DNA of 64,000 nucleotides from Hydrolagus colliei (Eukaryota): positions 15,934,001-15,998,000 of the forward strand of contig CM068746.1 of assembly GCA_035084275.1 (NCBI GenBank), in the 5' to 3' direction. This document shows, one piece after another, positions 1-49,700 of the stretch (positions within the stretch are counted from its first letter, which is position 1; every line of letters begins with the position of its first letter). Made by a program: the position numbers and the translations under genes. The notes below the pieces were generated by a model. That model had not been told where the DNA came from. It worked only from the letters and a program-made list of their open reading frames with translations, and ran no database searches.

Positions 1-329
1 CAATGGCATTACAGTATTTTAAACCAGGCATAACGTTATATTGATACTCAAGTTCTTGGAACAAACTAATAGATTGATACTTTGTTCAAATGCAAGAAAA
101 CGTGAATCGCTCATCTACTGAATTGGAGACGAAGTTGAACTCAGGCAGCAATTGTCTTGAACGAAAGTGTCTAGTGTCAAACAATACACCGAAAAACACA
201 ATGGCATGAATCACAGATGAGAGACAGATTTCAAACTCAGGTGCCAACTACCAAGACAGGTACACTATTTCATCTACAAATAGAACATGGTGTCTTTATC
301 TTAAAATAATCTATTGATAAAAAAGTTAC

Positions 330-402
330 CTTCCATTCATTCTCATTTTTGAGGTCGGATGTGAGAAGTCTCAACTTTTTGTCAGCATCTGCTGTGCACA
401 AT
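330..402 (-). CDS. NUP37: NUP37 coding exon 3 (gene continues beyond left edge)
   Basis: tcttacag|A TTG TGC ACA GCA GAT...TGG AAG|gtaac. 73 nt, (R)LCTADADKKLRLLTSDLKNENEWK, matching recalled human FCTSAADMKIRLFTSDLQDKNEYK. Phase fits the previous exon. Confidence 0.93.
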
Positions 403-683
403 CTGTAAGAGTTGAGAGATAGTTAAAAGAAAACAAGCAATAACAGCAAATCAAACCAAACATAAAAGTTGGATGTTCCCTTTGATTTCAGTTGAACATG
501 AAACATAATTATTCACTCAAATAATTTTTTCCTTGTGCTTTCCAAATTTGACAAAATTAGTGAGATATTAGAGCCGCTACTTTCAGGTAGACCATGCATT
601 TTTGTACTCTCTTCTAAAGATGAACTTTCTCTTCCATAGCCGACCCTTTATGTTACTTCCTCCAATCAATACAGTAGGTATTA

Positions 684-6888: not shown

Positions 6889-7102
6889 AAAGCCAGTAAA
6901 ATACTGTAAACCCTGCAGCCTCTCACATGTGGGGACATTAAAGGGCAGTGAATAGAGGACACTGACTAGCAGAGCACGGTAACTAACCAGAGAGCCGAGG
7001 AGACAGTGAGCAATCCCATTGCTATGGTGCTAATGTGGCTGGAAGGCCCGGCCAGGGAGGGAAACCAAAGCAGTGACAGGACCGGGTGAGATGCGGACAA
7101 AC

Positions 7103-7267
7103 CTGGAATCTACACGTCCCCACAACTACATAGTGGCTGCCTCCATAGGCGAGGAGCCCCCCGGCCTGGCCGCTCTCGAAGGGGCTGAACTCGGCCACGT
7201 GAACGTACTCCTCCTCGCACTGGACAGAGCAGGTGGGGGTCCTGGCCGCGGCCACCGGGTCCTTCAT
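7103..7267 (-). CDS. NUP37: NUP37 coding exon 1 (nucleoporin Nup37, WD40)
   Basis: ATG at 7267, 55 codons MKDPVAAARTPTCSVQCEEEYVHVAEFSPFESGQAGGLLAYGGSHYVVVGTCRFQ|gtttg, vs human MKQDASRNAAYTVDCEDYVHVVEFNPFENGDSGNLIAYGGNNYVVIGTCTFQ. Confidence 0.95.
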
Positions 7268-7500
7268 CACTCCTCCGCCGCCGCCGAGCACCGAGCCCTG
7301 CCATTGGTCAGCTTCACATTCCCGCGACGCGTGCTATTGGCTGCCGCCCCGCCTATTCGGGGCTCCGATTGGCCAATCTCTGCTCGCACCCACCCCACCA
7401 CTCCCCGCGCTCCCATTGGTCTAACCGCTTGTGTTCCACCTGCTCTCTCCCTGATTGGTCGCTTGGTCGCTTATGCGGGAGATTTAAATTTCGAGACGGT
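7268..7500. promoter_or_regulatory. CpG-island bidirectional promoter of NUP37/PARPBP
   Basis: High CpG content; ATTGG at 7303, 7336, 7368, 7415, 7454; E2F-like TTCCCGCG 7319-7326; GC box ~7346; GCGGGAGATTTAAA (CDE/CHR-like) 7475-7488. Confidence 0.85.
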
Positions 7501-8953: not shown

Positions 8954-9402
8954 TGTCATAGTCTAATTTCATGCCCGATTTTAAATGCCTGAATATTGCC
9001 TACTCGAGTTTTGGTTTCGCCAATCCCTAAAGATTATGATCATTCAGGATATTTATATTTTTCTCAAAATACAGTACATTACTTTTGGATTGCTTCTATT
9101 GAATCCCACCTGCCTGTTATCTGCCTACTCTACTAACCATTGTCAAATATTTAAATTAATGTTTTCTTCTGTATTCAGAGAGGTGGTTGGATGCTTACTA
9201 CAACTCTCTACCATTGCTGGGTGAAGCCAGAAGCTTTGTGTTTCCCTACAGAAACCTCCCATTTGTCTATGGGTTTAGTCACATGACTAGTCTTGTGACT
9301 TGAGAATTTAGGTTCCAAAACTTTGTTATTATATGTGTTGTGTTTGTCCTTGCAACATAAAAATCTAATGCGTTTGTTTTAAAAAAAAATTCTTTTAGGA
9401 TC

Positions 9403-9552
9403 ATGGATTGCGTTCAGTTGAAGCTATTGCAGGTGATAAAAACATTCAGAAAAGAGCGTTATAAATTGTCTGAATCTGAAAGAACCACAGTATGTGGTGC
9501 GGATAGCATGTTCATGGTCTTGCAGCTTGCCATGGCAGAAATAAATAAAGAG
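9403..9552 (+). CDS. PARPBP: PARPBP (PARI) coding exon 1
   Basis: ttttag|gatcATG. 50 codons MDCVQLKLLQVIKTFRKERYKLSESERTTVCGADSMFMVLQLAMAEINKE|gtacg, vs human ...[26 protein letters not shown]. Confidence 0.95.
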
Positions 9553-10498
9553 GTACGTGCCTTCTCCATTATCTGTCACTATCTGTCTTCCCTAATTTGC
9601 ATCTGATGCTCTATTTTCCTGGTTCCACTGCAATATTTCCTGGTTCTGCTCAGTGGTTAGAGTTTTGCAAGTGAGAGACTTGGGTTATAGGGATACATTC
9701 ATGTGGTGCATTCCCAGTAAATCTATCTGCATCCTTCCAGATGACTGCTACCATGCAGCAGCTGCTCAAGAGATAAAACATCATGCTGTCTTGTCAATGG
9801 CCCTGCACCAGCAGTCTCTATCATCAGCTAGGACCACAGTAGTCTGAAAATAGATGTGCATTATTTGGTGTTCTCTTAAATGTCACATGGATATCTCCCC
9901 ATCACAATGAAGAATTCCAATCCTAAATTGGCTCCCAGTTCAACAACTATGGGATACTGCATCCAGTTGGTCTTCTACTGATTTATGGTATTTAGCTATC
10001 ACCCTCCCTCTTCCTACCTCTAGAATCTCAATCCAGTATTGATAAACAGGACTTAGCCTACTTAGATCCCAACCTAAGTTTAGACATTGATTTTATTTCC
10101 AAATATTGACATGTAAGACTTTGGCATCCCATTTCACTGAAAGAGATTGAAGGTCACTAATTTATCAGCTGGATAGAACTGCCCGATCGACTAAATCTGT
10201 TGTATGCCATACTTCCCTGCACATATGGTACTCTAGTCTATCTCTTCCCTCCGCCCCCACCATCCCACCCCCACTACCAATACACATGCAGACTAGCTCT
10301 GTAAAAATTACAGTTCCAGAAGAGAATGAATAGGTTTAAATAGTTGTTTCGCTCCTGCAAAAGCAAAACTTTAACAGAGAGCCGACAGTGACAACAGATA
10401 TTTAATTTTTTCTGGTATCAAATATAGATTATACAGTTGCATCTTTGCACAACAGAGATGCAAATCCATCTCAGTTTAATTTATGATGAGTAATTTAT

Positions 10499-10838
10499 TG
10501 TGGAGCTCCTGTGGCTTAGTGGTTAGAGCACTTGTCTTACAAGCTGGGGAGACCAAGCTGGGGAGACCTGTGTTTGAATCCAGGCAGGTCAGGGCGAAAC
10601 CTTGGGCAAGTTTCCTTACTCCACACGCCTAATAATAATCCCTCCAAAAAAAACCACAATAATAAAATTGGTCATTTCAATCCACGACTGTGTGCGGGAC
10701 ACTGCTGTGCGCAATTGGCTGCCGCGATTCGCCCACAAATATATACAGTCAATTCACTTTACAGTATATTCTGTGAAGCGCTTTGGGACGTTGACAAGAT
10801 GTGGAAAGCGCTATATCAAATGCAAGGATTATTATTAG
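10499..10838 (+). mobile_element. tRNA-headed Deu-type SINE, full length, with an internal 14-bp duplication
   Basis: Family consensus plus aagctggggagacc x2. Confidence 0.9.
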
Positions 10839-11108
10839 TATTAAATTTGTTACAGATGTATTACAGGTACCAATTGAAATTACAGTCACATGTTATGCTA
10901 TTAACTCTGAGTCATTCTTGCTCGTAGTTCAGTCCAATAAAGAGTGTGTGCACTCTGCATGTACAAACTGAAAAGCAGCACTGAATGCAAGTAAAGTTTG
11001 TCAGTTATTGTTAGAGTTGGGCACGTGTTTTTGTTTCTCTCATCTTACCTTGCTTACTTTGCAACCTTTTCTTTTGTTGAATATTGCTTTTCTGCATTCA
11101 CTCCTTAG

Positions 11109-11342
11109 TCCTGTGGAGAATTCAGCATTGCCTTAAGTGACGTGCTTGTAACGTGGAGACACTTGCTTCAGGAGAAACTAAACCTATTGAGTGAAAATGA
11201 AGCAGCGCCAGAAGAATATGTGAACGTTCGAAAAGCTTATGATACTTTCCTGAACAGAAGCAACTCTGTCGACCTGATTGATGTGCACAGGATTTGTATT
11301 GAATTAAAATCTGAAAATGAAATTGGAGAAATGTTGTCTATG
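11109..11342 (+). CDS. PARPBP: PARPBP coding exon 2
   Basis: ccttag|TCC TGT GGA GAA TTC...TCT ATG|gtatg. 234 nt, SCGEFSIALSDVLVTWRHLLQEKLNL..., vs human HSGEFTVSLSDVLLTWKYLLHEKLNL. Confidence 0.95.
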
Positions 11343-11457
11343 GTATGTTGACAGTGTGAATATTTTGCATAAAGTTGCATACTTGTTTATTATATATATA
11401 TTGATTTATGTTCGGAGTGGTGTGTAATAGAGTAACTAACTGGACTTTTACTGCTAG

Positions 11458-11559
11458 GTGCAACTGTTCGACTTCCTGTCAGGATCATCTGAAACTTTGG
11501 AAAACTCGTTGATCTCAGTCCCCGCTTCTCCTTCCGATAAATATCCAGTCAATTCTAAG
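11458..11559 (+). CDS. PARPBP: PARPBP coding exon 3
   Basis: gctag|GTG...AAG|gtgag. 102 nt, VQLFDFLSGSSETLENSLISVPASPSDKYPVNSK, vs human SQLLDFLSG...SIPTSPTSKY. Confidence 0.92.
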
Positions 11560-11996
11560 GTGAGCTCAAAATATTTGGGCGAGTAACTTTATACCGTGTA
11601 TTGTTTTTGAATGGAGATCTTGTAAAATACAGAAAAGCCCTGTTATAAGTTGTTTCCTTGCAATGGAAATTAAATTAGGCATTTGCTAAACATGTGGGTA
11701 GCAGTTCCATTGACTTCCTTTATACCATCAACATTACCCACTAAAATGGCTGACTGGGCCACTACAAATGCCATTTCACAAATAGTGATGTCAGAGGAAA
11801 CGAGAGGTTGGTCATTTTATTTTCACTTGCAGTAAAAATGGCCGACATCCATATCTCGTATTGCCAGCTGTGTGTTTGGTGGGGTGGGGGTGCACATTTC
11901 ACAGCTCTAACCTTGCTATAGAGATGCATGTTATAATGGGCCTGCACTATATCTCCCTTTTAAACAATACTCCATTTGCGGCTTCAGGAAAGTATA

Positions 11997-12322
11997 CGCT
12001 AAAACCTCGATAATCCCGCACGGTTTGGCCTACTCACCTCCTCGGTGTTTGCCGGTATTTAGAAACCTACCTCGAAATGGCTGGGGAAGCCCCTCCCCAT
12101 ACACCACATGTGCTGTAAACACAGTACTGAGGCAAAACAGTGTCCGAGCTCCACCCACAGCGCCGGGTGACAGAGAGGCCACGCCGTGAACTCCAGTCTC
12201 CCATGAACTTCTGGAGATTTGCCGGACATCAGAAAACATCCAATACTGTTTGTATTTTTGAAGTCTTGCCGGTTTTAGGGAGTTGCCAGCTTTCAGAATG
12301 TTAGATTATCAAGGTTTTACTG
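11997..12322. mobile_element. Second Tc1/mariner-type MITE family
   Basis: TA|cgctaaaacctcgataatc ... gattatcaaggttttactg|TA imperfect TIRs. Confidence 0.65.
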
Positions 12323-12436
12323 TATCACATTCTCACAACCCTTTGTGTGAAGAAATGTTTTCTAACTTGAAACCAGCTCAACTCTAATTTCATGTTCATG
12401 TCTCCTTGTTTTGGATCCTTCAACCAGAGGTGAGAG

Positions 12437-12480
12437 TTGTCTCATTCAAATTGTCTCATTCAAATTGCCTCATTCAAATT
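12437..12480. repeat. 14-bp tandem repeat (ttgtctcattcaaa) x3 within an old CR1-like fragment
   Basis: Direct inspection. Confidence 0.85.
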
Positions 12481-13439
12481 TCCCCTTAACCTTCTCAGAT
12501 CTGGTGAAATTTATCCAAATTCTCACTAGCTAAAGCTCTTCATTTAGGTATTAACCAAGTGAACAGTTGTTACAAGCCCTCCCTGCCCTATTGTTTCTAC
12601 AGTTGGGTGTCCAAACTGAATATATTACTCTAAGTGAAGTCTAATCAGAACTGCAACAGCACTTTTCCTTTGTAGTCCAGACTACTTTATAAATCCTAGC
12701 GTCCCATTGACTTTTTGATTGCTCTCCGCACCTGGGAGCCAGCATTTAATGCCTTCTGTACTTAAATACGTTTGTTAATCTACCCCATCCGCCATCCCCT
12801 TTAGAATGTATTCACATCTCCCATTATACCCTCAAAGGGCACTACCTCGCCACTTTTCTGTGTCCAAATCTGGCTAACATGAATAAAGAATATCAGTAAT
12901 TGATCATCTAAATCTAACAGAACAAAAACTGAGAGCAACTAGTTTTTTTTAATGCAAATCAGTTTATTTGGTTTTATTTTCTTCACTAGTCAGAAAATAC
13001 ATTCAATTGAAGGTCAAGTACAATTGCTCTGAACCTATTAAAGAATATCTGAAATGGAGTTGGGCCGAGCTGTTAGAGTTCTGGAAGTCTCTGCTTTATG
13101 CTGCCATTGCGAATATGTTATTGACAAAAAACTATAGTTCTGGAGTTGAGACTTCTCATGACAGCAATAAGGAAAGCTTGATAATATCGCACTGGCAAAG
13201 TGTGCAGGGTGGTGTGCCACTTACTGAACTCTCTCTGGTTTGCCTGTATGGACCAGCAAATATGGAGTCTTTGGATTCCATCACAGTTTTAATAATGCTT
13301 AATAACCAACTGCTGTTCATTTAGCTTCAGCAGCTGCTTTGGATTAAATCAACAATAGCAAAAGGGAAATAATCGTCTCCTCCACAGGTCATGTCCCTGT
13401 AAGCCCTACTTGATGGCTTCTTTTCCAGCCCCTGCAACA

Positions 13440-14370
13440 TTCATATGTAGCATTCCTCAGGATTCTGTCCTGTTCCTCTCCATCTAAATGCTTGGTGGCA
13501 TCATCCGCAGACATGGGATTAATTTCCAAATGTATGCAGATGACACCCAACTCTATCTCTCTGCCTCCACCCTCGACTCTAGGACCACCCCCGTCTTAAT
13601 GGATTGTCTATCAGACATCAAGTCCTGGATGAGAGGTAACATGTTCCAATTGAATGTTAACAAGACCGAGCCCTCGTGCTTAGCTCCCATCAGGGCCTTT
13701 CATGCCATGAAGATGTCCCAAGGCACCAGCCAGGTAGTGTTTCGGATCCAATATAGGGTTGGAATCGGGTCAGGTGTAGGGAAGATGGGGGGAGAAGGAG
13801 ATGACTGATGGCACGGTCAAAGAGGTGGGATTTGAAGGAGGCTAGGGAGGGGGCAGATGGCAGAAGGCTCGCGCCGATTGTGGGGCGGGTGGTTTGAGAG
13901 ATGTGGAGCAGGCTGGAGCCCACTGAGTGGAGTGAGCGGACAGGTTGGTAGGGGGTTAGGTGGTTGCAGAGGTAGGGTGGGGCAATGCCATGGAGAACCT
14001 TGAAGATGAGGACCAGGATCGTGAATTGAATCCTCTGAGTGATGGGAAGTGGAGTTGGGTGCTCCCGACGTGAAAGGCGCTATATAAATGTAAATTGTTG
14101 TTGTTGTTGTTGGGTGAGAAGGGGGGTGATAGATTTGTGGAGCCTGGTGTGGGAGAGGACATGAGCCGCACAGTTCTGGATGATCTGCAGCCTACGGAGG
14201 GAGGAATTAGTGAGGCCGATAAGCGAGGGAGTTGGCATAGTCGAGCCTGGACATAATGAACGCATGAATGATCCTAACCACCAGCTCGGGTGTGGTTACT
14301 CGAATGTCCAGCACCTTGGGACGTCCGCCCAATGTGAAAGGCCCTACAACAAATGTAATTTGTTGTTGTT
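13440..14370. mobile_element. Cluster of L2 fragments: + strand RT piece (YADDTQLY, ~13440-13700), - strand 3' piece (~13705-14280), and two short + strand tails
   Basis: ORF 13488 contains IIRRHGINFQMYADDTQLYLS; ORF 14207(-) contains HAFIMSRLDYANS; tails end in (ttg)n. Confidence 0.85.
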
Positions 14371-14606
14371 GGAGAGGTGAAAATAAATGATCTCTTCTGT
14401 TACGTAATCCTTCAGTGTACACTTGGTAATAATACAAACTCTCCTTTTCTTTAACATTGTCCAGAAAAGAATAAGAGCTTCTGATTTAGATTTGAGATGC
14501 AAAGTTAAGTAGTAGTATCAAATCTGAAAAAGTTAAATGGCCGATTTGATCATACAATAGTTGAATATTGCATTAACATTTTTGTGTTACTTTTTTTTTG
14601 CTGCAG

Positions 14607-14777
14607 TTGGCAATGATGGTGAAGAAGCTCCTCTGTGGTTATTTGAACTTACTGGTGAACTCAAAGAGTGATCTAGCTTTGGCATATGTGTTCAACAGCC
14701 CTGACCGAGGACTTGGAAGGAATGCCTTCACTGATCTCCGACATGCAGCACAAAGCAAACAGACCTCTCTATTCTTG
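14607..14777 (+). CDS. PARPBP: PARPBP coding exon 4
   Basis: ctgcag|TTG...TTC TTG|gtaaa. 171 nt, includes YLNLLVNSKSDLALAYVFNSPDRGLGRNAFTDLRHAA. Confidence 0.96.
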
Positions 14778-16542
14778 GTAAACGAGCAAGTTGGAACTCT
14801 TTCGCAATCTTAACTAGTTAAATTGACACAGTTCTAATTAAAGCCGCTAAGACTGTGGCAATTTGCCAAGTACTCCATGTGAATCCCAGATTTTATACGC
14901 TTTTTGTTAAATGGGTAAATAACAATATCATGTATCCATTTTTCTGCTGATCACTTTGTTTGGTAGAAAGGTTTTTTTTAAAAAAAAGGAGTCTTCCACT
15001 GTGCCTAACTTATGTTATTTTCAGGGTAATGTGGAATACTGAAACAACATGCCTAGCACCAAGTCAAGCAATCCTAACCTTTGGCAGTAGCACAAGCATA
15101 GAATGGGATTCATTTTTTTTATTACTCCAATGTTTTACCCTTCCAGTGGGTGACGCTTTTCATCTTCTGAAAGCTTTAAAAATGCTGTTCAGTCAGAAGA
15201 CAGTAAATTTGTATAGTTGAGTGTTAATGTCACTGAGCACTGATGTTGGGGAGTGCTGGATTTGGCAGCCAGCACTCTTACATCATCAGGCTTCATTTTG
15301 TAGCACGAGAGAGCCCCAGAGTAAGGCGCTCAGAAAGCTCCATGAAACATAATAATAATCCTTGCATTTTGATATAGCACTTTTCATATCTTCTAGACAT
15401 CTGAAAACGCTTCACAGAATATACTATGAAGTGAATTGACTGTATATTTGTAGGCGAAATGCGACAAAAAAGAAATTTAAACTTTTTAAAAAATCTCTGC
15501 ATTTTAAGACATCATGAGGAAAGGCTCATAAATATAATTTTCACAAACCTACTGAGGCATTTCTTTATCGTGAATTTGGAGCTAAAAATAATCCTAACAT
15601 GATTTATTGTAGACAAGTGAAATGGATTTTAATTATTTATTTATGTAGCATTTACTATAAAGGAACTTGCTTAAAATATTGATATAATTGTCGGATGCTA
15701 TAAATTTTGAATGATCTATATAACTACGCGTTCGTTGCCAATTAACTAGTGTCATTGTGTGTTTTCCAAACCAATTTCTGAAAATCTGACTTGAACTTCG
15801 TATTGTCTACACCGGGGTTGTCCAACATTTTGCCTGCTGAGGGCCAGGTGCCCTATTTGAGAAACATCCAGGAGTGACATAGGCAATATTTTTGGGTTTC
15901 CCTTCAAGAAAGGGTAACCTGTCATTAACAGATTATCAATCAATCAAATCAAAACTTACATTTATATAGTGCCTTTCACGTCGAGAGGACATCACAAGGC
16001 ACTGTACAGTCAGATAGGGACAAGAGCAGGGGGGTGGGGGGGTGGGGAGGGGCAGGACGAAGAAGGGTAGGAAAATTGACTGCATATTTGTGGGAGAAAC
16101 ATGAAGTTATGAAGGGAGTGAGTGGGCCAGATTAAATGGGGGGAGCTGGATGAAATAAACTCCCAGGCCACCAGTTAGACCACTCTCCTCTGCTCTATTC
16201 AGCCTCCATGTACAAACAAGAATTGTCATTATCCTGGGGATGAATTAACGCCGGGAGAATTCTCCCTTTTAAGCACACACAATACTGACTCAGTTTGCGC
16301 TTAATTTAAGCACAACTCCAAAATTGTCTCTCAGATGATGGTCCAGCCAAAGACGAAACGGCCATCAGCAAGATTATTGTAATGGATGCAACCATACAAA
16401 CCATTATTAACTATGGCAATTCAGTTTTGACTTGTCATCTTCTGTGCTCAACACTGGCCTAAAGGTGTAAGGTTTGAAGAAACCAAAGTTTCTTACTTGT
16501 ACACAGAGGTTGAATAAATTAGAAATTGGGTTTTGCTGTCTA

Positions 16543-16851: not shown

Positions 16852-17176
16852 GTTACTTATCAACCATACTGGAGTGTCAACATGGTTTTCCTTATGTTTC
16901 TCATGTTTCTTCTGGAACATAGGAACAGGAGTAGGCCATTCAGCCCCTCAAGCCTGTTTCAGCATTCTATTAGATCATGGCTGATCTGTACCTCAACTCC
17001 AATTACACACCTTTACCCCATATCCCTCATGCCTTTATCTGGTTTGATTAGTTATGATTGGAAATGTATTTTGTTTATTGCATATTTCAGTATTCTTCCT
17101 ATCACTTGAAGTCTCAATTCTGCCCCCCAAGGAAAGTGCACAGTTACAAAATAAGACCTGAGTGGGGAAAGATATG

Positions 17177-18140
17177 GACAACAACAACAAAATTACATTT
17201 ATAGAGAGCCTTTCATGTTGGGAGGACATCTCAAGGCACTGAACTGTTAGGTCGGGAGGTGGCGGGAGGAGTGGAGGGGGGTGGGGGAGGCGGGGAAGGA
17301 GAGTAGGAAAGGGGGGGAGTGAGGAGGCAGCAGAAGGCACGGACGAAGAGGAAGGTCTTGAGACCGGCCATGAAGGAGGAAAGGGAGGAGGCAAGGCAAA
17401 GGGATTGCGGGATAGAGTTCCAGAGTGTGGGGGCAGAGAGGCTAAAAGCCCGGCCACCGATGGTAGGGTGGTGTTGGTGGGGGACGTGGAGCAGATTAGA
17501 GCCTGCTGAATGGAGGGGATGGGCAGGCGGATAGGGAGACAGCGGGTCGGAGAGATAGGCGGGGGCAAAGCCGTGAATGACTTTAATGGTGAGGACGAGG
17601 ATCTTGAATTCGATCTTCTGGGGGATGGGAGCCAGTGGAAACGGGCGAGGGTGGGAGTGATGTGGTCGTGGAGCCTAGTGGGGTGGGGGGGAAGAATACA
17701 CAATCTGCAGAATTCTGAATAATCTGCAGCTTGTGAAGGAAGGTCGACGAGGAGAGAGTTCCCGTAGTCGAGCCTTGATGTGATGAATGCCTGGGCGAGT
17801 GTTTTGGCAGCAGTATGGGGGGTGAGGTAGTGGCGGAGTCTAGCAATATTGCGGAGGTGGTAGGACCAGTACTGGTCATGGAGCGGATTTGGGGGAGGAA
17901 GGACAGTTCTGGGTCTGCCCAGATTCCTGACTGGGTTTGAGAGATGGAGAGTACAGCCTTGGATGCTGATATTGCCAGCGCCTGAATTGCGGAGGCGCTG
18001 ACGCGAGCCTATCAGGAAGGTCTCTGTCTTTTGGATGTTTAATTGGAGGAAGTTGTCCCTCATTGAGGACTCAATGTCGGTCGGACATGCAGTCAGAACG
18101 TCAGTGGTCCTGGAGTCGAGGGTGGAAGCAGAATGGTAGA
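17177..18140 (-). mobile_element. L2 LINE 3' fragment (~1 kb)
   Basis: ORF 17035(-): NFLQLNIQKTE...RNLG...LRNIARLR...AFITSRLDYGNS...HWLP; tail (ttg)n. Confidence 0.92.
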
Positions 18141-18230
18141 GTGCTAAGGATGCAAGATTGAACCTTGTTTCAAAGAATGAGGAAGGCTATGGCTACTGTC
18201 ATTTAATTTATGTTTTACTTTACCCTCTAG

Positions 18231-19209: not shown

Positions 19210-20502
19210 GAGCAGTTTCCACCCTGCCCACAGTACAGAGACTGCGCTCGTGAAAGTCACAAATGACGTCCTCTCTATCTGTGACCAGGGCTCCCTCTGT
19301 CTCCTTCTCCTCCTGGACCTGTCCGCTGCATTCGACACAGTCGACCACGCCATCCTCCTCCACCGCCTGTCCTCCGCCATCCACCTCAGTAGGACCGCAC
19401 TCGCCTGGTTCGAGTCCTACCTCACAAACCGCCAGCAGTACATCCCCACAAACGGCTTTTCCTCTCACACTTGCCCAGTTACGTGTGGGGTACACCAGGG
19501 ATCCATCCTTGGCCCCCTCCTCTTCCTCATCTATATGCTCCCTTTTGGGGATGTCATCCGCAGACATGGGGCACACTTCCACATGTATGCAGTTGACACG
19601 CAACTCTATTTCTCCACTTCACTTTGCGACCCCCAGTCCCCAAATGTTCTGTTAGCCTGACTGTCATACATCAAGAGCTGGATGAGCGCAAATTTCTTGC
19701 AGCTGACGGAGGCTTTGACTCTCGTCAACGTCTCCATTCACATGGCTCACTCTCATCTCCTCTGCCTTTCTGGTCTCCCACTGAAACTCTCCGAACCTGT
19801 GCGCAACCTTGGCATCAGGTTCAACCCCCAACTGTCCTTCCTCCCCCACATCTGGTCCCTCACCAGCACCGGTTTCTTCCACCTCTGACGGATTGCCCGT
19901 TTCCGGCAATACCTCACCCCAAAAGCCGTTGAAACCTTGGTTCACGCCTTCATCGCCTTATGGCTGGACTATTCAAATGGCCTCCTCGCCGGTTTCCCCT
20001 CCACCACAATCCATAAAATCCAACTCATCCAAAACTTTGCTGTCCGCATACTCATCTGCACCAAACTTCGCTCCTCCATTACCCCAGTCCTTGCCAGACT
20101 TCACTGGCTCCCTATCTCAGAGAGGATCGACTTCAAGATCCTCATCCATGTTTCCAAATCCCTCCACTCTTCTGCATCCCCCCTACCTCCCTGACCTCCT
20201 CTCTCCTCAAACCAGCTCCACCAGGTCTGGCCTCCTCCATGTCCCCGAATCCTCCACTCCACCCTCGGCGGCCGGGCCTTCAGCCACTATGCCCCGAGAA
20301 TTGGAATTCCCTCCCTCACTACCTTCGTCTTGCCCCCTCTTTTGTCAGTTTCAGGTCCCAGCTGAAGACCTTTCTCTTTGACTGCGCCCTTGGTCACCTT
20401 TCTACCCCTGCCTCTGGATCGGTCCCGGGATCCGCTATTGTGAAGCGCTCAGAGACGCCATCCGGCGTGGAGGGCGCTATATAAATCAAAGTTATTGTTG
20501 TT
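19210..20502 (+). mobile_element. L2 LINE, 5'-truncated, frameshifted RT
   Basis: LLLLDLSAAFDTVDH, GVHQGSILGPLLFLIY, LHWLPI motifs; tail gagggcgctatataaat...ttgttg. Confidence 0.93.
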
Positions 20503-26481: not shown

Positions 26482-26809
26482 TGTGGGCTCCTGCAGCTCA
26501 GTGATTAGAGCACTGGCCTTACAAGCGTGAGATCTGGATTCAAATCCAGGCAGCTCAGGGCGAAACCTTGGGCAAGTTTCCTTACTCCACACACACGCCT
26601 GATAATAATCCCTCCAAAAAAAACAATAATAAAAATTGGTCATTTCAATCCATGACTGTTTGTGGGGCACTGCTGTGCGCAATTGGCTCCTGCGTTTTGC
26701 CCACAAGTGTACAGTCATTTCACTTTACAGTATATTCTGTGAAGTGCTTTAAGCCATCTAGAAGACGTAAAAAGTGCTAAATCAAATGCAAGGATTATTA
26801 TTATTATTA
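26482..26809 (+). mobile_element. tRNA-headed Deu-type SINE
   Basis: Family consensus. Confidence 0.88.
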
Positions 26810-27519: not shown

Positions 27520-27960
27520 TGTGGAGTCCTGTAGCTCAGTGGTGAGAGCACTTGCCTCGCAAGCGAGAGACTTGGGTTCAATTCTAGACAGGGCAAAACC
27601 TTGGGCATGTTTCCTTACTCCACACGCCTGATAATAATCCCTCAAAAAGAACAATAATAAATTGGTAATTTCAATCCACTGTTTGTGGGACACTGCTGTG
27701 CCGAGTTTTGTCCACAAATATACAGTCAATTCACCTTACAGTATATCCTGTAAAGCGCTTTGAGACATCTAGAAGATGTGAAAAATGCTATATCAAATAC
27801 AAGTATTATTATATGTTCCCGCTTGGTGACATCAACCGCAGACATGAGGGCAACTTCCACATGTACGCGGATGACGCCCAACTCTATCTCTCTGCCTCCA
27901 CCTTCGATAACAGGACCACTGCTGTTGGACAACAAGTTCTGGATGAGAGCTGACCAGTTG
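27520..27960 (+). mobile_element. Deu-type SINE (27520-27812) directly followed by a short L2 RT fragment (YADDAQLY)
   Basis: Family consensus; ORF 27708 translation. Confidence 0.85.
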
Positions 27961-28136
27961 GGCTCTGTTTGCCTACATAAATCCAACTAACTTTATTCCA
28001 AAAGGGGCTTTGAAGCATTTTGATACTGTAAGATGCTCTATCAAATGCAAGTATTTTCCATTAGAATTTCACCAGTGTTAAACTACAAAACTTACTATCT
28101 CCCCTTTCTATCCACCTGATCTCCCTATCATATTAG

Positions 28137-28492
28137 ATGAATGTGAACCTGGAACAGCTTCTGCAGCTCACTCACCAGGCAGTAAAGAATGTGCATTGAA
28201 CAAACCTGGACTTGGGATGAAGGCTGGGAACACTCATCATAAGCAAACTATGAATCTGAAAGGCAGCAGGAAAGTGACTAAGAGGAAACTGGTAGAGGTG
28301 AACTCGCTTTCGGAATGCAACGGTGAGAATGAGCCACGGCAGAAGTCTGTTAAAATGACTGACGTGAAGTGCATCCTATCGAAGAGTAAAATAGGCATGA
28401 AAATGCCAGTATCATCAAAGGGAGGCAAAAATGCAGCCAAGAATAAGTTAATTCCTGGACAAGGAAAGTTGACACATTTTTTTAGAATGTAA
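28137..28492 (+). CDS. PARPBP: PARPBP last coding exon with C-terminal PIP box (QGKLTHFF, 28460-28483)
   Basis: tattag|AT GAA TGT... in frame with ORF 28196; ends KLIPGQGKLTHFFRM*, vs human KLISGQAKLTQFFRL*. Total CDS 1782 nt = 593 aa. Confidence 0.93.
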
Positions 28493-28661
28493 AATTTTCA
28501 GGATTTGTTTTGTTTACTTTAAAAGACTGATGGGTATCATTTTTAAATGTTGGCTTTATTATAACTTGATATGATCCATTGTGAAAAATTTGTTTCAATT
28601 GAAATTGTGTGAATAACATTTCCTTCCAACAGTTGAATCAGAAATGCAGAATTTGTAACCC

Positions 28662-28667
28662 TTTATT
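28662..28667 (-). terminator. Candidate PMCH polyadenylation signal (second candidate 28555-28560)
   Basis: TTTATT on + strand = AATAAA on - strand, ~235 nt downstream of the PMCH stop. Confidence 0.6.
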
Positions 28668-28742
28668 AATATAATGGTTCCATTGATCACTCAGTAACCA
28701 AATGCAGTTTCACATCAGGACTTTGGCTTTTGAAGTATGAAC

Positions 28743-28748
28743 AATAAA
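28743..28748 (+). terminator. Candidate PARPBP polyadenylation signal
   Basis: First AATAAA after the PARPBP stop codon. Confidence 0.55.
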
Positions 28749-28900
28749 GTAAATTGACATTTAAGCATGCATTTTTCACTACTATGCTTTAAGTATACAT
28801 TTTCCACCACCATTCGATACTACGAGAATATCTTTTTCTAAATGTAGATCACTGACAAAGTTCCCAACAATATTCTGTATCTTCCCAGCAGCCTTCAGAA

Positions 28901-28944
28901 TTACCAGCATGGCCTATATACTCTTCCCAGCATACATCTGAGCA
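28901..28944 (-). CDS. PMCH: PMCH exon 3, encoding the MCH ring
   Basis: cccacag|TG CTC AGA TGT ATG CTG GGA AGA GTA TAT AGG CCA TGC TGG TAA = (M)LRCMLGRVYRPCW*. Confidence 0.97.
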
Positions 28945-30263: not shown

Positions 30264-30510
30264 TGTCAAAATTTCTTCTGCTTACAGGAAATTTGCTTAT
30301 ACGTTCCATATCACCAGAACCTCTCCGAGTTTCTGTTGTCTCAGTCTGCTGTAGATTGTCAGATAATTCCGATTTGCTCGAGCCTTTGATTGCAAAATAA
30401 GGTGGTTGTTTCACTGTGGCTTTCAACGGTAGAGCGGATTTGAGCAGACTTTGGTTGGCAGAGCTAAGATGATCCTGAATGGTTTTCCAGTCTAACTTGT
30501 AACCCAAATC
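30264..30510 (-). CDS. PMCH: PMCH exon 2 (NGE-like, NEI-like peptides and start of MCH)
   Basis: tgttaag|GAT TTG...TTT GAC A|gtaag. 247 nt, ...PYFAIK-GSSKSELSDNLQQTETTET-RR-GSGDMERISKFPVS-RR-NFD. Confidence 0.95.
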
Positions 30511-31735: not shown

Positions 31736-32081
31736 TAATGATGATCCTTGCATTCGATACAGTGCTTTTCACGTTTTCTAGATGTCTCAAAGCGCTTCAT
31801 AGAATATACTGTAAAGTGAATTGACTGCATATCTGTGGGTGAAATGTGGCAGCCAAGTGGCGCACACTGTGTCCCACAAACAGTCTTCGACAAACAGTCC
31901 TTGGCTACTGTGTGGAGGGACAAACAGTCAAGCAGTCGGTGGATTGAAGTGACCAATATTTTTGGGGGAGGGATTATTATTAGGTGTGTGGAGTAAAGAA
32001 ACTTGCCCAGAGTTTCACCCTGACTGGAATTTAACTCAGTTCTCTCGCTTGCAAGACGAATGCTCTAACCATTGAGCTACA
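31736..32081 (-). mobile_element. tRNA-headed Deu-type SINE in PMCH intron 1
   Basis: Reverse complement of the family consensus with a ~50-bp internal insertion flanked by repeated acaaacagtc. Confidence 0.85.
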
Positions 32082-32263: not shown

Positions 32264-32485
32264 CGTCATGACAAAGACTTCTGGGTTTATTTTGTCATCC
32301 AACAGTGGGTAATACTTGAATAACAGTGAAGGCATTGCACTTACTGGTAGGTCAACCTTCACCGGGTTAAAATCATTTTGTGGCACCTTGTTTTCTTGCA
32401 ACCATTCCACAGATTTTGCAGAAGCAGATAGCTTTGTGATGACCAAAACCGAGAAGAAGAGAACAGTGTACGCTGACACAGCCAT
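32264..32485 (-). CDS. PMCH: PMCH exon 1 (signal peptide)
   Basis: aaaATGG at 32485; 74 codons MAVSAYTVLFFSVLVITKLSASAKS...VFVMT|gtaag. Total precursor 170 aa. Confidence 0.92.
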
Positions 32486-32584: not shown

Positions 32585-32679
32585 TTTATATACTTCAGCA
32601 CAATGGAATAACTTCCTGGTGAGTCTACTTGCAAGGCTTATACCAGTTGTGACTTGAAATGAATGTATAGTCTGACTCA
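32585..32679 (-). promoter_or_regulatory. PMCH core promoter: TATATAAA (32585-32592) and AP-1-like TGA(C/G)TCA (32673-32679)
   Basis: TATA box 100 nt upstream of the ATG; motifs read directly. Confidence 0.7.
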
Positions 32680-34815: not shown

Positions 34816-36363
34816 CAGTGGTCCTCAACCTTTTTCAGTAATGTACCCCTTGTTAATTTTCAACATTATTTTTTCAATATTTTTTCATAATTTTTCAACG
34901 ATGTAACAGAATGGGTGGACGATGGTAGTGCAGTTGATGTAGTTTACATGGACTTTCAAAAGGCATTTGACAAAGTGCCGCATGAGAGGCTTATTAGGAA
35001 AATAGAGGCCCACAGCGTTAAGTGGACAGTGGTAGCGTGGATCCACAACTGGCTGCGAGACAGAAAGCAGAGAGTTGTGCCGAGCGGCTGCTTTTCAGAC
35101 TGGAGGGAAGTGTGCAGTGGCGACCCCCAGGGATCAGTTTTGGGACCACTGCTCTTTTTAATATACATTAATGATTTGGATTTAAGTTTAGGGAGTACGG
35201 TTTCCAAATTTGCAGATGATACTAAGTTAGGAAGAATAGTAAATAGTGAGGAGGATAGTAGACATATGCAAGAGGATATAGATAAAATGGTAAAGTGGCA
35301 GACACATGGCAGATGAAGTTTAATACAGAGAAGTGTGAGGTGATACAGTTTGGGAGAAGAAATGAGGGGAGGCAATGTAGGCTAGATAGTACAATTTAAA
35401 ATTTTACAATTTTGTGTGAAGGAACAGAGAGACCTGGGGATTTGTGTTAGTGACTCTTTGAAAGTGGCAGGACAGGTAGACAAAGCTGTTAAGAAGGCAT
35501 ATGGGATACTAGGCTTTATAAATACGGGTATAGAATACAAAGGTCAGGAAGTGCTGATTAACTTCTATAAGACTTTGGTTAGGCCTCAGCTGGAGTACTG
35601 TGTCCAATTCTGGTCACCACACTTTAGGAAGGATGCAGAGGAGATTTACTAGGATGGTACCAGGAATGAGGGACTTCAGCTACAAGGAAAGGCTAGATAG
35701 GCTAGGATTATTCTCTCTAGAACAAAGAAGATTGAGAGGAGACCTGATAGACGTTTATAAGATTATGAGAGGTTTTGACAGGGTGAATAGGGAAAGACTG
35801 TTTCCACTAGTGGGTGAATCAGTGACGCGTGGTCACAGATTTAAAATAGTTTCAAAACGAAGCAGAGGGGAGCTGAGGAGAAATGTTTTCACTCAACGGG
35901 TTGTTCGAATTTGGAATGCATTGCCTGAAAAGGTGGTGGAGACAGATTCCATAACAGCTTTTAAAAGGGAACTAGATCTTTATTTAGGAAGAGCAGGTCT
36001 GTTAGGTTATGGGGAGAAAGCTGGGCAGTGGGATTGAGTTGCTCTGATCAAAGAGCCGGCACAGACTAGATGGGCCGAATGGCCTCCTTTTGTGCCATAT
36101 AATTCTATGATTATCGTGTGCTCCCATCCAACCACATACACACACACACCACCCACCTCATTCCACTTGCATTTTATGACCAAGCTTTTCTTATATAACA
36201 AAACAACTAGTACAAAACGAGGGGAATAACAATTAAATATACAATTTGTAAGGCGACAAAATGCTAAATAAGAGCCAAATAAATCAATGTACCACCACCT
36301 GTACCCACTCGAAGTAATTTTGTACCCCCTGATACAACATGTACTCCTGGTTGAGAACCGCTG
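34816..36363. mobile_element. hAT-Charlie-type MITE carrying a CR1 insertion
   Basis: TIRs CAGTGGTCCTCAACC / GGTTGAGAACCGCTG; 8-bp TSD ttctcgac / ttctagat, matching the NTCTAGAN-type target. Confidence 0.85.
34890..36112 (+). mobile_element. CR1 LINE, 5'-truncated RT and 3' UTR
   Basis: VDVVYMDFQKAFDKVPH, PQGSVLGPLLFLIYINDL, KFADDTKL, LVRPQLEYCVQFWSP, LEQRRLRGDLI; ends aattctatgatt. Confidence 0.95.
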
Positions 36364-45643: not shown

Positions 45644-46556
45644 CTGAAAACAGAGAATCTCAAAATTAACTGTGAAAACCCTTAAGGCTTTTCAGATACG
45701 AGGCAATAATCGATGGGGTAATTTTTCTCTGGTCAGTAAAAGTGGCTTGTAATCTTGAAATTGACTATTACACTGGCTGATGGCTGAACACAGGAAGATC
45801 TTGGCGCTAACCAACATATAGTATCAAGATACTGTAATTAGAGACAGGAGAAGCACAAGATTTTCAGAAAGAGGATATTTCAAACTGATAAATTTAGCAG
45901 TGAACAAATCTACTAATGTATTCCCAAAGTGGCTTTGTTATCAATTAAACACTAGGCAAAGCCAATGGAGACATTTAGATATCTATTTCCTTCAAAATAT
46001 CAATATGTCTGAGAAGTTAATGCTATGATTTTCATCTCCATCTCACTACTATGCTAATGAGTTTGGGTCAGTAGCTATATCATTATTCATTATTTGCCTC
46101 TTGTGGATCATCCAGCAGTGGGGTGGGGAAGAGTTAAATGGCTTAAGGGAAGGAAGAAAAGGAGAAATTGGTCAAGAAAATTGGTGACTCCATGTGCTAT
46201 TTCATAATTATCTGTTAATAAACATTACTTATATATTTCTATGGAATAGATTCCCATTGGATCCTGGGAAAATGGGAGTGTAGCCTTTCTGTGTGAACAA
46301 GTTAAAGATCAATAACATGAATAATACAATATATCTGGTGGATCTATGAGCTTGAGATTTTACATATTGCAAACATTTCACACAGCACCTTCACCTCAGG
46401 ATTACAATTCTCTTCCACAAATAATATTAAGTGTTTTTAGTGGATAACCATGAGAGATCGGATGATGATACAGTTCAAAGCCCAAGATTTTTTTTAAAAA
46501 GATAGTATTTTTTCTCTATCTATTACAGGATGAAGTCAGATCTGTTTCTTCCTTAC

Positions 46557-46723
46557 CCTTTGTCCTTTATCACTGTGGGGTTGTGTGCGTGCAGACGCCT
46601 CTGGCTTTGCTGGTTTTGCACAATACATCTCCAACAACTTGAGATCACAGCTCTGGAAGCAACATTCGTCCACAATCCCTCTATTTGCCCGCCTTGTAGT
46701 AGGCCTGTAGCCTGTCGGTTTGT
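46557..46723 (-). CDS. IGF1: IGF1 exon encoding C, A, D domains and E start (mammalian exon 4)
   Basis: atcacag|AC AAA CCG...CAA AGG|gtaagg. 167 nt, (N)[55 protein letters not shown]. Confidence 0.97.
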
Positions 46724-49700
46724 CTGTGATAAAAAAAACATACACAAAACAGAACTGAAAAATATATCTGACTTGTCGGCAGCTAAAAACCTAACAGTAC
46801 TTGTATGATTTGATACATCATCTGAGACCCACACAATACTCCAGAGGCCATGAACCTTGCTAACACAGCACAATCTACAGGCACAGGTCAGAACTGAAGC
46901 CCTGAGTATGGTGGTGACTGCCAAAAATATAATACATTTGGCAAGACAAATGCTCTGCTGTACAGAATAGATTTTGGAATGAAAAAGTCTGCTGTTGCCA
47001 AAGTTCCAGATAAGATAGCTCGTCTTCCATGGACTTGAAACTTCACAAATCAAGTGGTAGGGGACAAAAACAGACCTATAACGTCACAACATTAACGTCA
47101 CGCGATTTGACCTGCGGTCTGACCCACATTAGCAGAAACCAGTGGGTGTGGTTTTGTGCCTGCAGTTCTTCATACACTGGGGTCTTAGGCTGCCTGCTAA
47201 AAATAGCGATTTTTCCGCTATGTTTTTACAATGGAATTTGATTATAAAGCCATAGCTAAAACATCGCTATTTTTAGCGATCAGAGTAAAATCGACCCAAG
47301 TGAGCTCGCACTTCAGATATCAAGACGCAGGATGAAAAGAGATTCACTCAAAATGTAAACGTGTCAACTACGGTCACTTGTGGATGTTCTTCAGCAACTG
47401 GTTCCAGAGCAGCGCCGAAATTGAAAGCATGTTGCTCACTGGACCTCTCAATAGAGGCACAATTGTCTTGCCTTTGGCATGGAAGATTCAAACCGAATCA
47501 AAGTTAACCTCAGATAAACAATTGTTGAGGGTGCAGCTCTGTCTGTTTGAGCTCCATTGTCCGCTTCTCTTCTTTGAATTCTACAGTCCATTTGCTGTCA
47601 TCCACCAAGAGTGCACATGGTCAACCTGCCCCTGGTTTTGTCAATGCCCTCGGTCTGAAGCTAGTTGCGAGGATGTGTGCAAAGTTGGAACTTTCCTGAC
47701 ATATTAAACAAAGGTCCTATCTGCTTGTTTAGATGAGGTACAGATCAGCCATGATCTAATAGAACGGCAGAACAGAATCGAGGCACTGAATGGTCTACTC
47801 CTAGGTTTGAATGTTAAACATCCCACCATATGAAAGGGAAAGGGAGTTTCTGCTCATCTTCAGGCCAACAGTCCTCCAGATTAACTGGTTGTTCACCTCA
47901 AGGCTGTTTGGACAAATTTATTGGCGCAATTGGTTGTCGAGTTTGCCTACAAAAACAATCATTATACTTGACAGTGATTACCTGGGAAGTGCTTTGAGAC
48001 ATTTCTATGTGATAAGGCGCTATAAAAACACAAGTTTGTTCATTTTCCCACCCCCTTTATTCCTCCAATGCCATGCATTATTCTTTAGCCAAGAGGATGC
48101 AGCTGGAGGGTGGGGAGACCTACTTATGAGCGTTTGCCAGTGCTACTCTTGATCCAAATACTCAGATGTGTAACAACAGTTGGAATGGACTTGCCTGCAA
48201 CTTTCCTTCCCTCCCTCCCTCTCAGCGATCTGCTTCCCTGCTGCTTTGGGTGCCCCGACTTAAAAGAAAACCTTGTGCAAGATTATGTTAAACTGCCAAC
48301 AGAAAGGGATTGGGAGCTGGATACAGGTTTTTTACTTTTCACTCATACTTCTTATAGGAATACATCTCTTGGAAGAATACTGTGCATGCATGTAGCTTTG
48401 CTCATTAGTGATAGTTTTATGAAGTTATTACAATGCCATTTAAAATAATCAACTATAAAGCTTTTAGGTGACATTAGACCAAAAGACAATCTTAGAGCTG
48501 AAAAGGTTGGGACGTCAGCGCCTTGAGACGTCCTCCCGACGTGAAAGGTGCTCTATAAATGTAGTTTTGTTGTTGTTGTTGTTGTTGTTGTGAGAATGGG
48601 GAATTTGTTATCCCAGAAGATTGGATATTAAGAATAAATTTTGATATTTAAGGAGAGATACTGTGAATAAACACATAGGAAGGAATAATAATAATCCTTG
48701 TATTTGACATAGGGCCTTATCATGTCTTTGAGGCGTCTCAAAGTGCTTCACGGAATGTACTGTAAAGTGAATATACTGTAATGTGTATACTGTATTTTGT
48801 GGACAAAACATGAAGAAAAAGCAGAGAAACACAATTAAAGGGTTGTTCTTATAGCTGAGTGGAGTCAATCGCTTCACACCATCTGCATTTGTACTGGTGT
48901 GAATGCTGCTACAACTCTCTGAAAGTAGCTAGGCTTTCAAGTTCTAGCATGATTCACTTTCATATTGTTCATCTCAGTCCCAATTTGTACTGTTAGATGA
49001 AACATGGCAAACTTTACAAAAGCATCTTACCGTTTAAATACCAAATTCAACTTTGCTGAATTCATCAAACCTAGATAAAGTGTTGTCAACATTTTCACCC
49101 AATAGGACTTTAAGAACAAACCAAATATTGATATTGGCTGAAGTCGTGATGTTTCATACAGTGAGAGGCTGCACTAAATTATTAAAGATAGTTTTATTGT
49201 GCAAGAGCACACAATGAGGCAGAAAGTGTTTCTTTCTGATTCTGGATGCTTTACTCATCAAATTTGTGAACCATTAGTTTACTGACTGCACTTTTTAAAC
49301 ATTGTGAGGTAGAAATACCATTTGGGTCTATATTTATTCTATTAGCATTGCATTTGTGCAGAATTTGGCAAATTGTTGAATTTAGTTTTAACTTTGAAGC
49401 TTGTTTTCTGTAGTTCTTAAAAGAAAACTAGCTTCAGAATTAAAAGTTGTATTTAGGTTCCGGATGGTGTGACATGCAATATTAGTAGCATAAATTCAGA
49501 CCTAGATAGAATTTTTACTGCAAGAATTTTTAGTTTCTCATCTTCTTCTATCTATCCATCTTCATCTATAATATTAAAACGACAATGTGTATCCGTGCTT
49601 CAGGAAGGATCCCAATGACCAATTGACATAGGGACATGATTTATACCTCATCCAAAAGGTCTTGTATCTGGGAGTGATGTGGGCATATTTGTTTTGGGGT

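Follow-up and report, generated by a model that had tools for sequence, protein, structure and literature searches.

An early stop codon shortens the predicted MCH of a chimaera, Hydrolagus colliei, to 17 residues

MCH hardly varies from sharks to mammals, although in synthetic work its last two residues prove unnecessary for receptor binding. The PMCH gene of the chimaera Hydrolagus colliei raises the question of whether a hormone lacking these two residues exists in a wild vertebrate, and whether such a gene is still functional or is decaying. The window analyzed here is a stretch of 64,000 nucleotides, in which an earlier sequence-only reading had recognized an MCH cut short by a nonsense change, with the ancestral stop still visible. 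We confirm that the TAA-truncated MCH is real in this sequence and that it is a new form of a known hormone. No prior report of a truncated chimaera MCH was found in a search of titles and the opening parts of abstracts, most subscription journals lying outside that search. The main text of the silver chimaera genome paper does not mention pmch, MCH or melanin, that of PMC6901935 contains neither 'truncat' nor 'stop codon', and the available portions of PMC4200842, PMC5207463 and PMC5447028 have nothing on residues 18–19.

PMCH in the window is one three-exon gene on the minus strand, and its frame is intact on splicing. The precursor comprises 170 amino acids up to the TAA, or 172 codons if read to the following TGA. 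Both introns are GT-AG, with pyrimidines at 17 of the 20 positions ahead of each acceptor. About 20 residues at the N-terminus are hydrophobic by hydropathy scan (peak 3.3), with a core common to Callorhinchus milii, and Pfam PF05824 (Pro-MCH) matches exons 2 and 3 with bit scores of 37 and 27.8, respectively, against a cut-off of 24. Intron 2 splits hormone codon 4, so that exon 2 closes with residues 1–3 and the first base of Met4 (30273-30264), which lie outside 28895..28944; the latter segment, read as 28944-28895 on the minus strand, spans the exon 3 acceptor through the second stop. An intron splitting hormone codon 4 is also the family layout (PMC6901935, available part). The following features were recognized, their conservation being given relative to 118 tabulated homologues from a profile search.

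32585..32592, minus strand: TATA-like box, 107 nt 5' of the PMCH ATG
32264..32485, minus strand: coding part of exon 1, 74 codons, with a hydrophobic, signal-peptide-like N-terminus and a phase-0 GT donor; 60/74 residues identical to C. milii pro-MCH
30264..30510, minus strand: exon 2, 247 nt, with the pro-region, MCH-gene-related peptide, Arg-Arg, hormone residues 1–3 and the first base of Met4; Pfam PF05824, E = 3.4e-9; 68/82 residues identical to C. milii
30280..30321, minus strand: predicted 14-residue MCH-gene-related peptide flanked by two Arg-Arg pairs, by alignment the counterpart of C. milii neuropeptide G-T
30274..30279, minus strand: Arg-Arg convertase site ahead of the hormone, dibasic in 118/118 tabulated homologues (117 RR, one KR)
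30271..30273, minus strand: codon AAT for hormone Asn1, straight after Arg-Arg; Asp1 in 118/118 tabulated homologues and in C. milii
28904..28944, minus strand: coding part of exon 3, which completes Met4, runs to Trp17 and includes the Cys7-Cys16 ring; match to model positions 70–83 of 85 in Pfam PF05824 (E = 2.6e-6)
28901..28903, minus strand: TAA stop at codon 18, which is Gln in 118/118 tabulated homologues
28895..28900, minus strand: relic codon 19, TTC (Phe, 28900-28898), and relic TGA (28897-28895) where the stop usually lies
28662..28667, minus strand: first downstream AATAAA hexamer, a candidate signal from the sequence (the second is at 28560-28555)

The 64-kb window contains exon 3 only once, even when up to 16 mismatches in 41 are allowed, and an alternative exon 3 acceptor is ruled out, the nearest other AG lying 56 nt upstream of the true acceptor. 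The exon 3 stretch gave no match in the PDB set searched, from which chains shorter than 20 residues are absent.

The gene is the single orthologous PMCH of a chimaera. It lies between NUP37/PARPBP and IGF1, and the expected vertebrate order, NUP37 - PARPBP - PMCH - IGF1, fits the neighbors found. An exon of NUP37 was identified, and two IGF exons are closest to IGF-I; the plus-strand neighbor, which showed only a weak UvrD_C match, we take to be PARPBP from its position and the usual gene order. The first NUP37 exon (7025-7333, minus strand) is head to head with the probable PARPBP exons (9361-14810, plus strand), and the sequence near 293-413 (minus strand) is presumably further NUP37-like coding sequence. 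In the IGF1 exon at 46539-46790 (minus strand), two Arg at the D/E-domain junction, which we take to line up with Arg71 and Arg77 of human pro-IGF-I, are replaced in the alignment to 8eyr_C, and the usual convertase motif of this junction looks eroded on sequence comparison. What we take to be broken reverse-transcriptase-like open reading frames (LINE fragments) and repeated SINE-like elements occur at 34891-36037 (plus), 17038-18186 (minus), 19211-20191 (plus), 26500-26800, 27520-27810 and 31740-32080, with presumed repeat copies also inside PMCH intron 1. The last exon of the PARPBP-like gene (28082-28492, plus strand) ends in what appears to us to be a PIP-box-like motif and had no Pfam or PDB match. 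PMCH (minus) and this gene (plus, stop at 28492) are tail to tail, with about 400 nt between their stops (28492-28901), and overlapping 3' UTRs are implied by AATAAA hexamers at 28667 and 28560 on the minus strand and at 28743 on the plus strand. The arrangement is reminiscent of the mammalian antisense gene AROM (PMC6901935, available part).

At the end of the hormone, Cys16 (TGC, 28909-28907) and Trp17 (TGG, 28906-28904) are followed directly by TAA, so that the series TGC TGG TAA TTC TGA, and with it a peptide of 17 amino acids, is read on the minus strand at 28909-28895 just as the sequence-only reading had it. The second in-frame stop that it placed where a 19-mer would end is indeed at codon 20, in agreement with the stop position in 118/118 tabulated homologues. 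Since chance alone would put a stop at a particular codon position downstream of the gene about 8% of the time, the TGA is by itself modest evidence. The Pfam match in exon 3 breaks off at model position 83 of 85. We infer that the old codon 18 was CAA, this being the simplest path, with the relatives compared as proteins. The 19-residue mammalian MCH sequence quoted for comparison agrees with the rat match and with PMC5650667 (available part), and residue 1 is Asn rather than Asp, as claimed, encoded by AAT at 30273-30271. The net side-chain charge of the hormone rises from +1 to +2, and the predicted mass of the 17-mer is 2156.99 Da (monoisotopic, ring closed). Everything else in the peptide is conserved: residues 2–17 match the commonest homologue form, positions 4–17 being without a difference from the commonest homologue peptide, and Arg11, Trp17 and the Cys7-Cys16 ring are present behind the dibasic site at the C-terminus of the precursor. 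The ring, Trp17 and splice sites are intact, as claimed, and a TATA-like box is present.

The profile search gave 196 matches, of which the best 120 were used; with the human record dropped, 119 were tabulated as cluster representatives ranked by similarity, and one of these, the C. milii model, is ring-less, leaving 118 for comparison. They include eight sharks, bichir, sturgeons, paddlefish, gar, amphibians, reptiles, birds and mammals, and no teleosts, rays or other chimaeras; given such similarity-ranked representatives from the best 120 of 196, a truncated form elsewhere could have escaped. Asp1, Gln18 and a 19th residue are present in all 118 ring-bearing pro-MCH sequences among the matches listed, residue 19 being Val in 92, Ile in 16, Asn in eight, Ala in two and Phe in none. 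The features of the canonical 19-residue class, namely Asp1 and Gln18 plus residue 19, are both absent from Hydrolagus MCH, which by its sequence belongs to the pro-MCH family but not to the canonical 19-mer class. Because Asp1 and Gln18 are invariant in 118/118 tabulated homologues, both are normally under selection, a point that counts against a change without cost.

The TAA might not be fixed in the species, being either an assembly error or an allele of the sequenced individual. It is a single base in a single haploid sequence, and PacBio CLR or short reads lie behind some holocephalan assemblies (PMC12952989, Table 1). Against this, the TAA came about by substitution and not within a long homopolymer, no N occurs in the window, and codon 19 has drifted to a residue absent from the 118 tabulated homologues, as expected if it ceased to be coding some time ago. 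A lone base-calling error explains the whole pattern poorly, because Asn1 and Phe19 are also derived, and we regard this explanation as quite improbable.

The only close database relative of the precursor is C. milii pro-MCH (P0001), which was also the only match in single-sequence searches with exon 2 and with the C. milii sequence. The two proteins are identical at 128 of 156 residues (18% difference), with no insertions or deletions and both Arg-Arg sites in common, and they are sisters in an 18-sequence tree with support of 99/98. A difference of this size suggests that the two chimaeras probably belong to separate families. C. milii has been described as having a 172-amino-acid precursor and a 19-mer ending in Ile19 (PMC6901935, available part; XP_007893646.1 cited there), and this length equals that of the Hydrolagus precursor when the old TGA is taken as its end. 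Residue 1 is Asp in P0001, versus Asn in the window; the Ile19 is taken solely from PMC6901935, P0001 being a ring-less model whose exon 3 is not directly comparable. Given the published 19-mer of C. milii, the truncation lies within Holocephali and is not group-wide; since C. milii has both the 19-mer and Asp1, truncation and Asn1 arose after the Callorhinchus split, put at about 187 million years ago for Chimaera (PMC12952989, available part). The change is dated only to after that split, because no further holocephalan protein appeared in the single-sequence matches or in the profile-search matches listed.

Two further differences between the chimaeras concern other parts of the precursor. 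The MCH-gene-related peptide (30280-30321, minus strand) has Ser as its last residue in Hydrolagus, and an internal Arg stands in place of a Gly of C. milii neuropeptide G-T, giving an extra possible single-basic cut site. The P0001 tail consists of 14 residues unrelated to MCH, which match part of Hydrolagus intron 2 (30116-30075, minus strand; 8/14 identical). That stretch is ruled out as an exon in Hydrolagus, in which TGG replaces the AG acceptor and there is a one-base shift. The match suggests that P0001 uses an intron-derived terminal exon, either as a prediction error or as a real alternative end.

If selection on the MCH system had been relaxed and decay were starting, the hormone core could be intact only because chimaeras evolve slowly. 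In accordance with that explanation, two positions otherwise invariant in the 118 tabulated homologues have changed in one lineage, and the ring-less, intron-derived P0001 tail might reflect imprecise splicing across the group; the tail may equally be a gene-model error, however, the 172-amino-acid C. milii form with full MCH having been published (PMC6901935, available part). We therefore compared rates and the placement of changes. Of the 28 differences between the two chimaeras, 12 are derived in Hydrolagus, 11 are derived in C. milii and five could not be assigned to either, as polarized crudely by outgroup counts. These counts of derived changes, 12 and 11 (P = 1.0, a comparison with low power for recent loss), and the end branches of 0.072 (Hydrolagus) and 0.12 (C. 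milii) argue for no general acceleration on the Hydrolagus branch. The hormone itself has changed at positions 1, 18 and 19 only. Three random replacements would all miss residues 6–17 with P = 0.055 and residues 7–16 with P = 0.12; for residues 2–17 the value is 0.004, at a boundary picked after the fact. If only two independent events are counted, the chance of missing residues 6–17 is 0.14. In favor of relaxed selection, the hormone rate fits that of the precursor: at least three changes in 19 codons have P = 0.16–0.40 at the whole-precursor rate, and an untouched 12-codon core has P of about 0.24–0.42 at the precursor's own rate. With chance survival at 24–42%, the intact core taken by itself is not significant and provides weak evidence.

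PMCH in the window carries no frameshift, no stop before the active core and no broken splice site, and its TATA-like box and Arg-Arg sites are intact. Together with the absence of a rate excess and the confinement of the changes to the ends of the hormone, this makes relaxed selection unlikely, and continued selection on the hormone core is favored. The earlier description of the gene as a natural minimal MCH rather than a pseudogene stands in part: with intact anatomy and no sign of general decay the gene is likely to be functional, as far as can be judged from the DNA, but the pharmacological minimum is residues 6–17 and the peptide here is 1–17.

The stop might instead be bypassed, either by read-through to the old TGA, which is still there, or by splicing from a new GT donor (28904-28903) made by the same base change. 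The GT fits the donor consensus at 8/11 bases; its U1 pairing energy, however, is -5.1 kcal/mol, ranking 22nd of 222 GT sites, whereas the real donors reach -9.3 and -7.0, and all nine downstream AG sites tested would turn Trp17 into Cys or a stop. To our knowledge, a T directly after TAA is not known to provide a context for read-through. We consider a bypass extremely improbable.

What the loss of residues 18–19 and the change at residue 1 may mean can be judged from data on human receptors, to which all the receptor data on the MCH ends belong. MCH without residues 1–5 and Gln18-Val19 is an agonist with an affinity for MCHR1 higher than that of the native hormone, and the pharmacological minimum is given as residues 6–17 (PMC7957705, available part, citing Audinot 2001 for the former). 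One cryo-EM structure of MCHR1 shows MCH density for residues 2–17 only (PMC11608246, available part). A second resolves residues 2–18, with residues 17–18 packed along ECL2; its listed contacts involve residues 5–15, this being the main listing, and a supplementary contact table could include Gln18 (PMC11074101, available part). The amino group of residue 1 binds ECL1 according to the available part of bioRxiv 2024.03.12.584619, so that Asn1 would keep the binding group, this not being the side chain. The same source places the affinity of MCH(6-17) below that of the full-length hormone and blames the N-terminus, in conflict with PMC7957705. Because Gln18-Val19 are dispensable for binding to human MCHR1, the expected functional effect is small.

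Adaptive remodelling, in which selection favored both trimming and the altered charge in connection with changed chimaera MCH receptors or with peptide stability, is highly unlikely in our estimation. Both ends are altered at positions invariant in the 118 tabulated homologues, and in human MCHR1 ECL2 borders residues 17–18 and ECL1 borders residue 1; the human structure-activity data in PMC7957705 (available part) nevertheless predict little effect, no receptor sequence lies within the window, and positive selection cannot be shown from two events. A wider conjecture, that in chimaerid-type holocephalans the two ends of MCH were remodelled alongside a change in, or loss of, its receptors, which gave the hormone a pharmacology or stability of its own, we also hold to be quite unlikely. 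Were it true, it would be a natural experiment on Asp1 and Gln18, which have been fixed elsewhere for >400 million years though dispensable in binding assays.

The Hydrolagus gene probably encodes a functional MCH(1-17) with Asn1, which would have originated by a tolerated nonsense change in the last exon. The change, most simply CAA to TAA, would have arisen after the Callorhinchus split and been tolerated because its cost was small, codon 19 drifting to Phe once past the stop. From general vertebrate neuropeptide biology, the mRNA should escape nonsense-mediated decay since the TAA is in the last exon, the precursor would be secreted and cut by PC1/PC2 at Arg-Arg, and the Cys7-Cys16 ring would close, yielding a 17-residue cyclic peptide with a free Trp17 end. 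Judging from the human receptor, the ring with Arg11 would enter the MCHR pocket as usual, because residues 18–19 are outside the core contacts. If there is an effect, it more likely concerns half-life or the preference for a receptor subtype than activation.

Such a peptide reveals no new mechanism, and the functional change is likely small. A wild vertebrate without the tail, and with residue 1 altered, provides a cheap test of the role of the tail in stability, receptor-subtype choice or processing. The generalization that MCH has 19 residues in chondrichthyans needs qualifying, and the finding is relevant to antibody and peptidomics work on chimaera brains.

Among known systems, the canonical 19-residue MCH of sharks, non-teleost ray-finned fishes and tetrapods shares with the Hydrolagus gene its layout, dibasic site, residues 2–17 and neighborhood. 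The differences are the end at Trp17 and Asn1, neither of which occurs in the 118 tabulated homologues. Teleost MCHB (pmchb, the salmon-type 17-mer) has the same number of residues and the same ring type, but it has a shorter N-terminus, keeps two residues beyond the Trp and is encoded by an intronless retrocopy (PMC6901935, available part). Equivalence with this 17-mer is ruled out, the Hydrolagus gene having three exons and ending at Trp17, and the equal length is a coincidence. Synthetic MCH(6-17) and the S38151 series likewise end at Trp17 and have high affinity for MCHR1 (PMC7957705, available part); these peptides, however, are man-made and also lack residues 1–5, whereas the Hydrolagus peptide retains the N-terminal arm.
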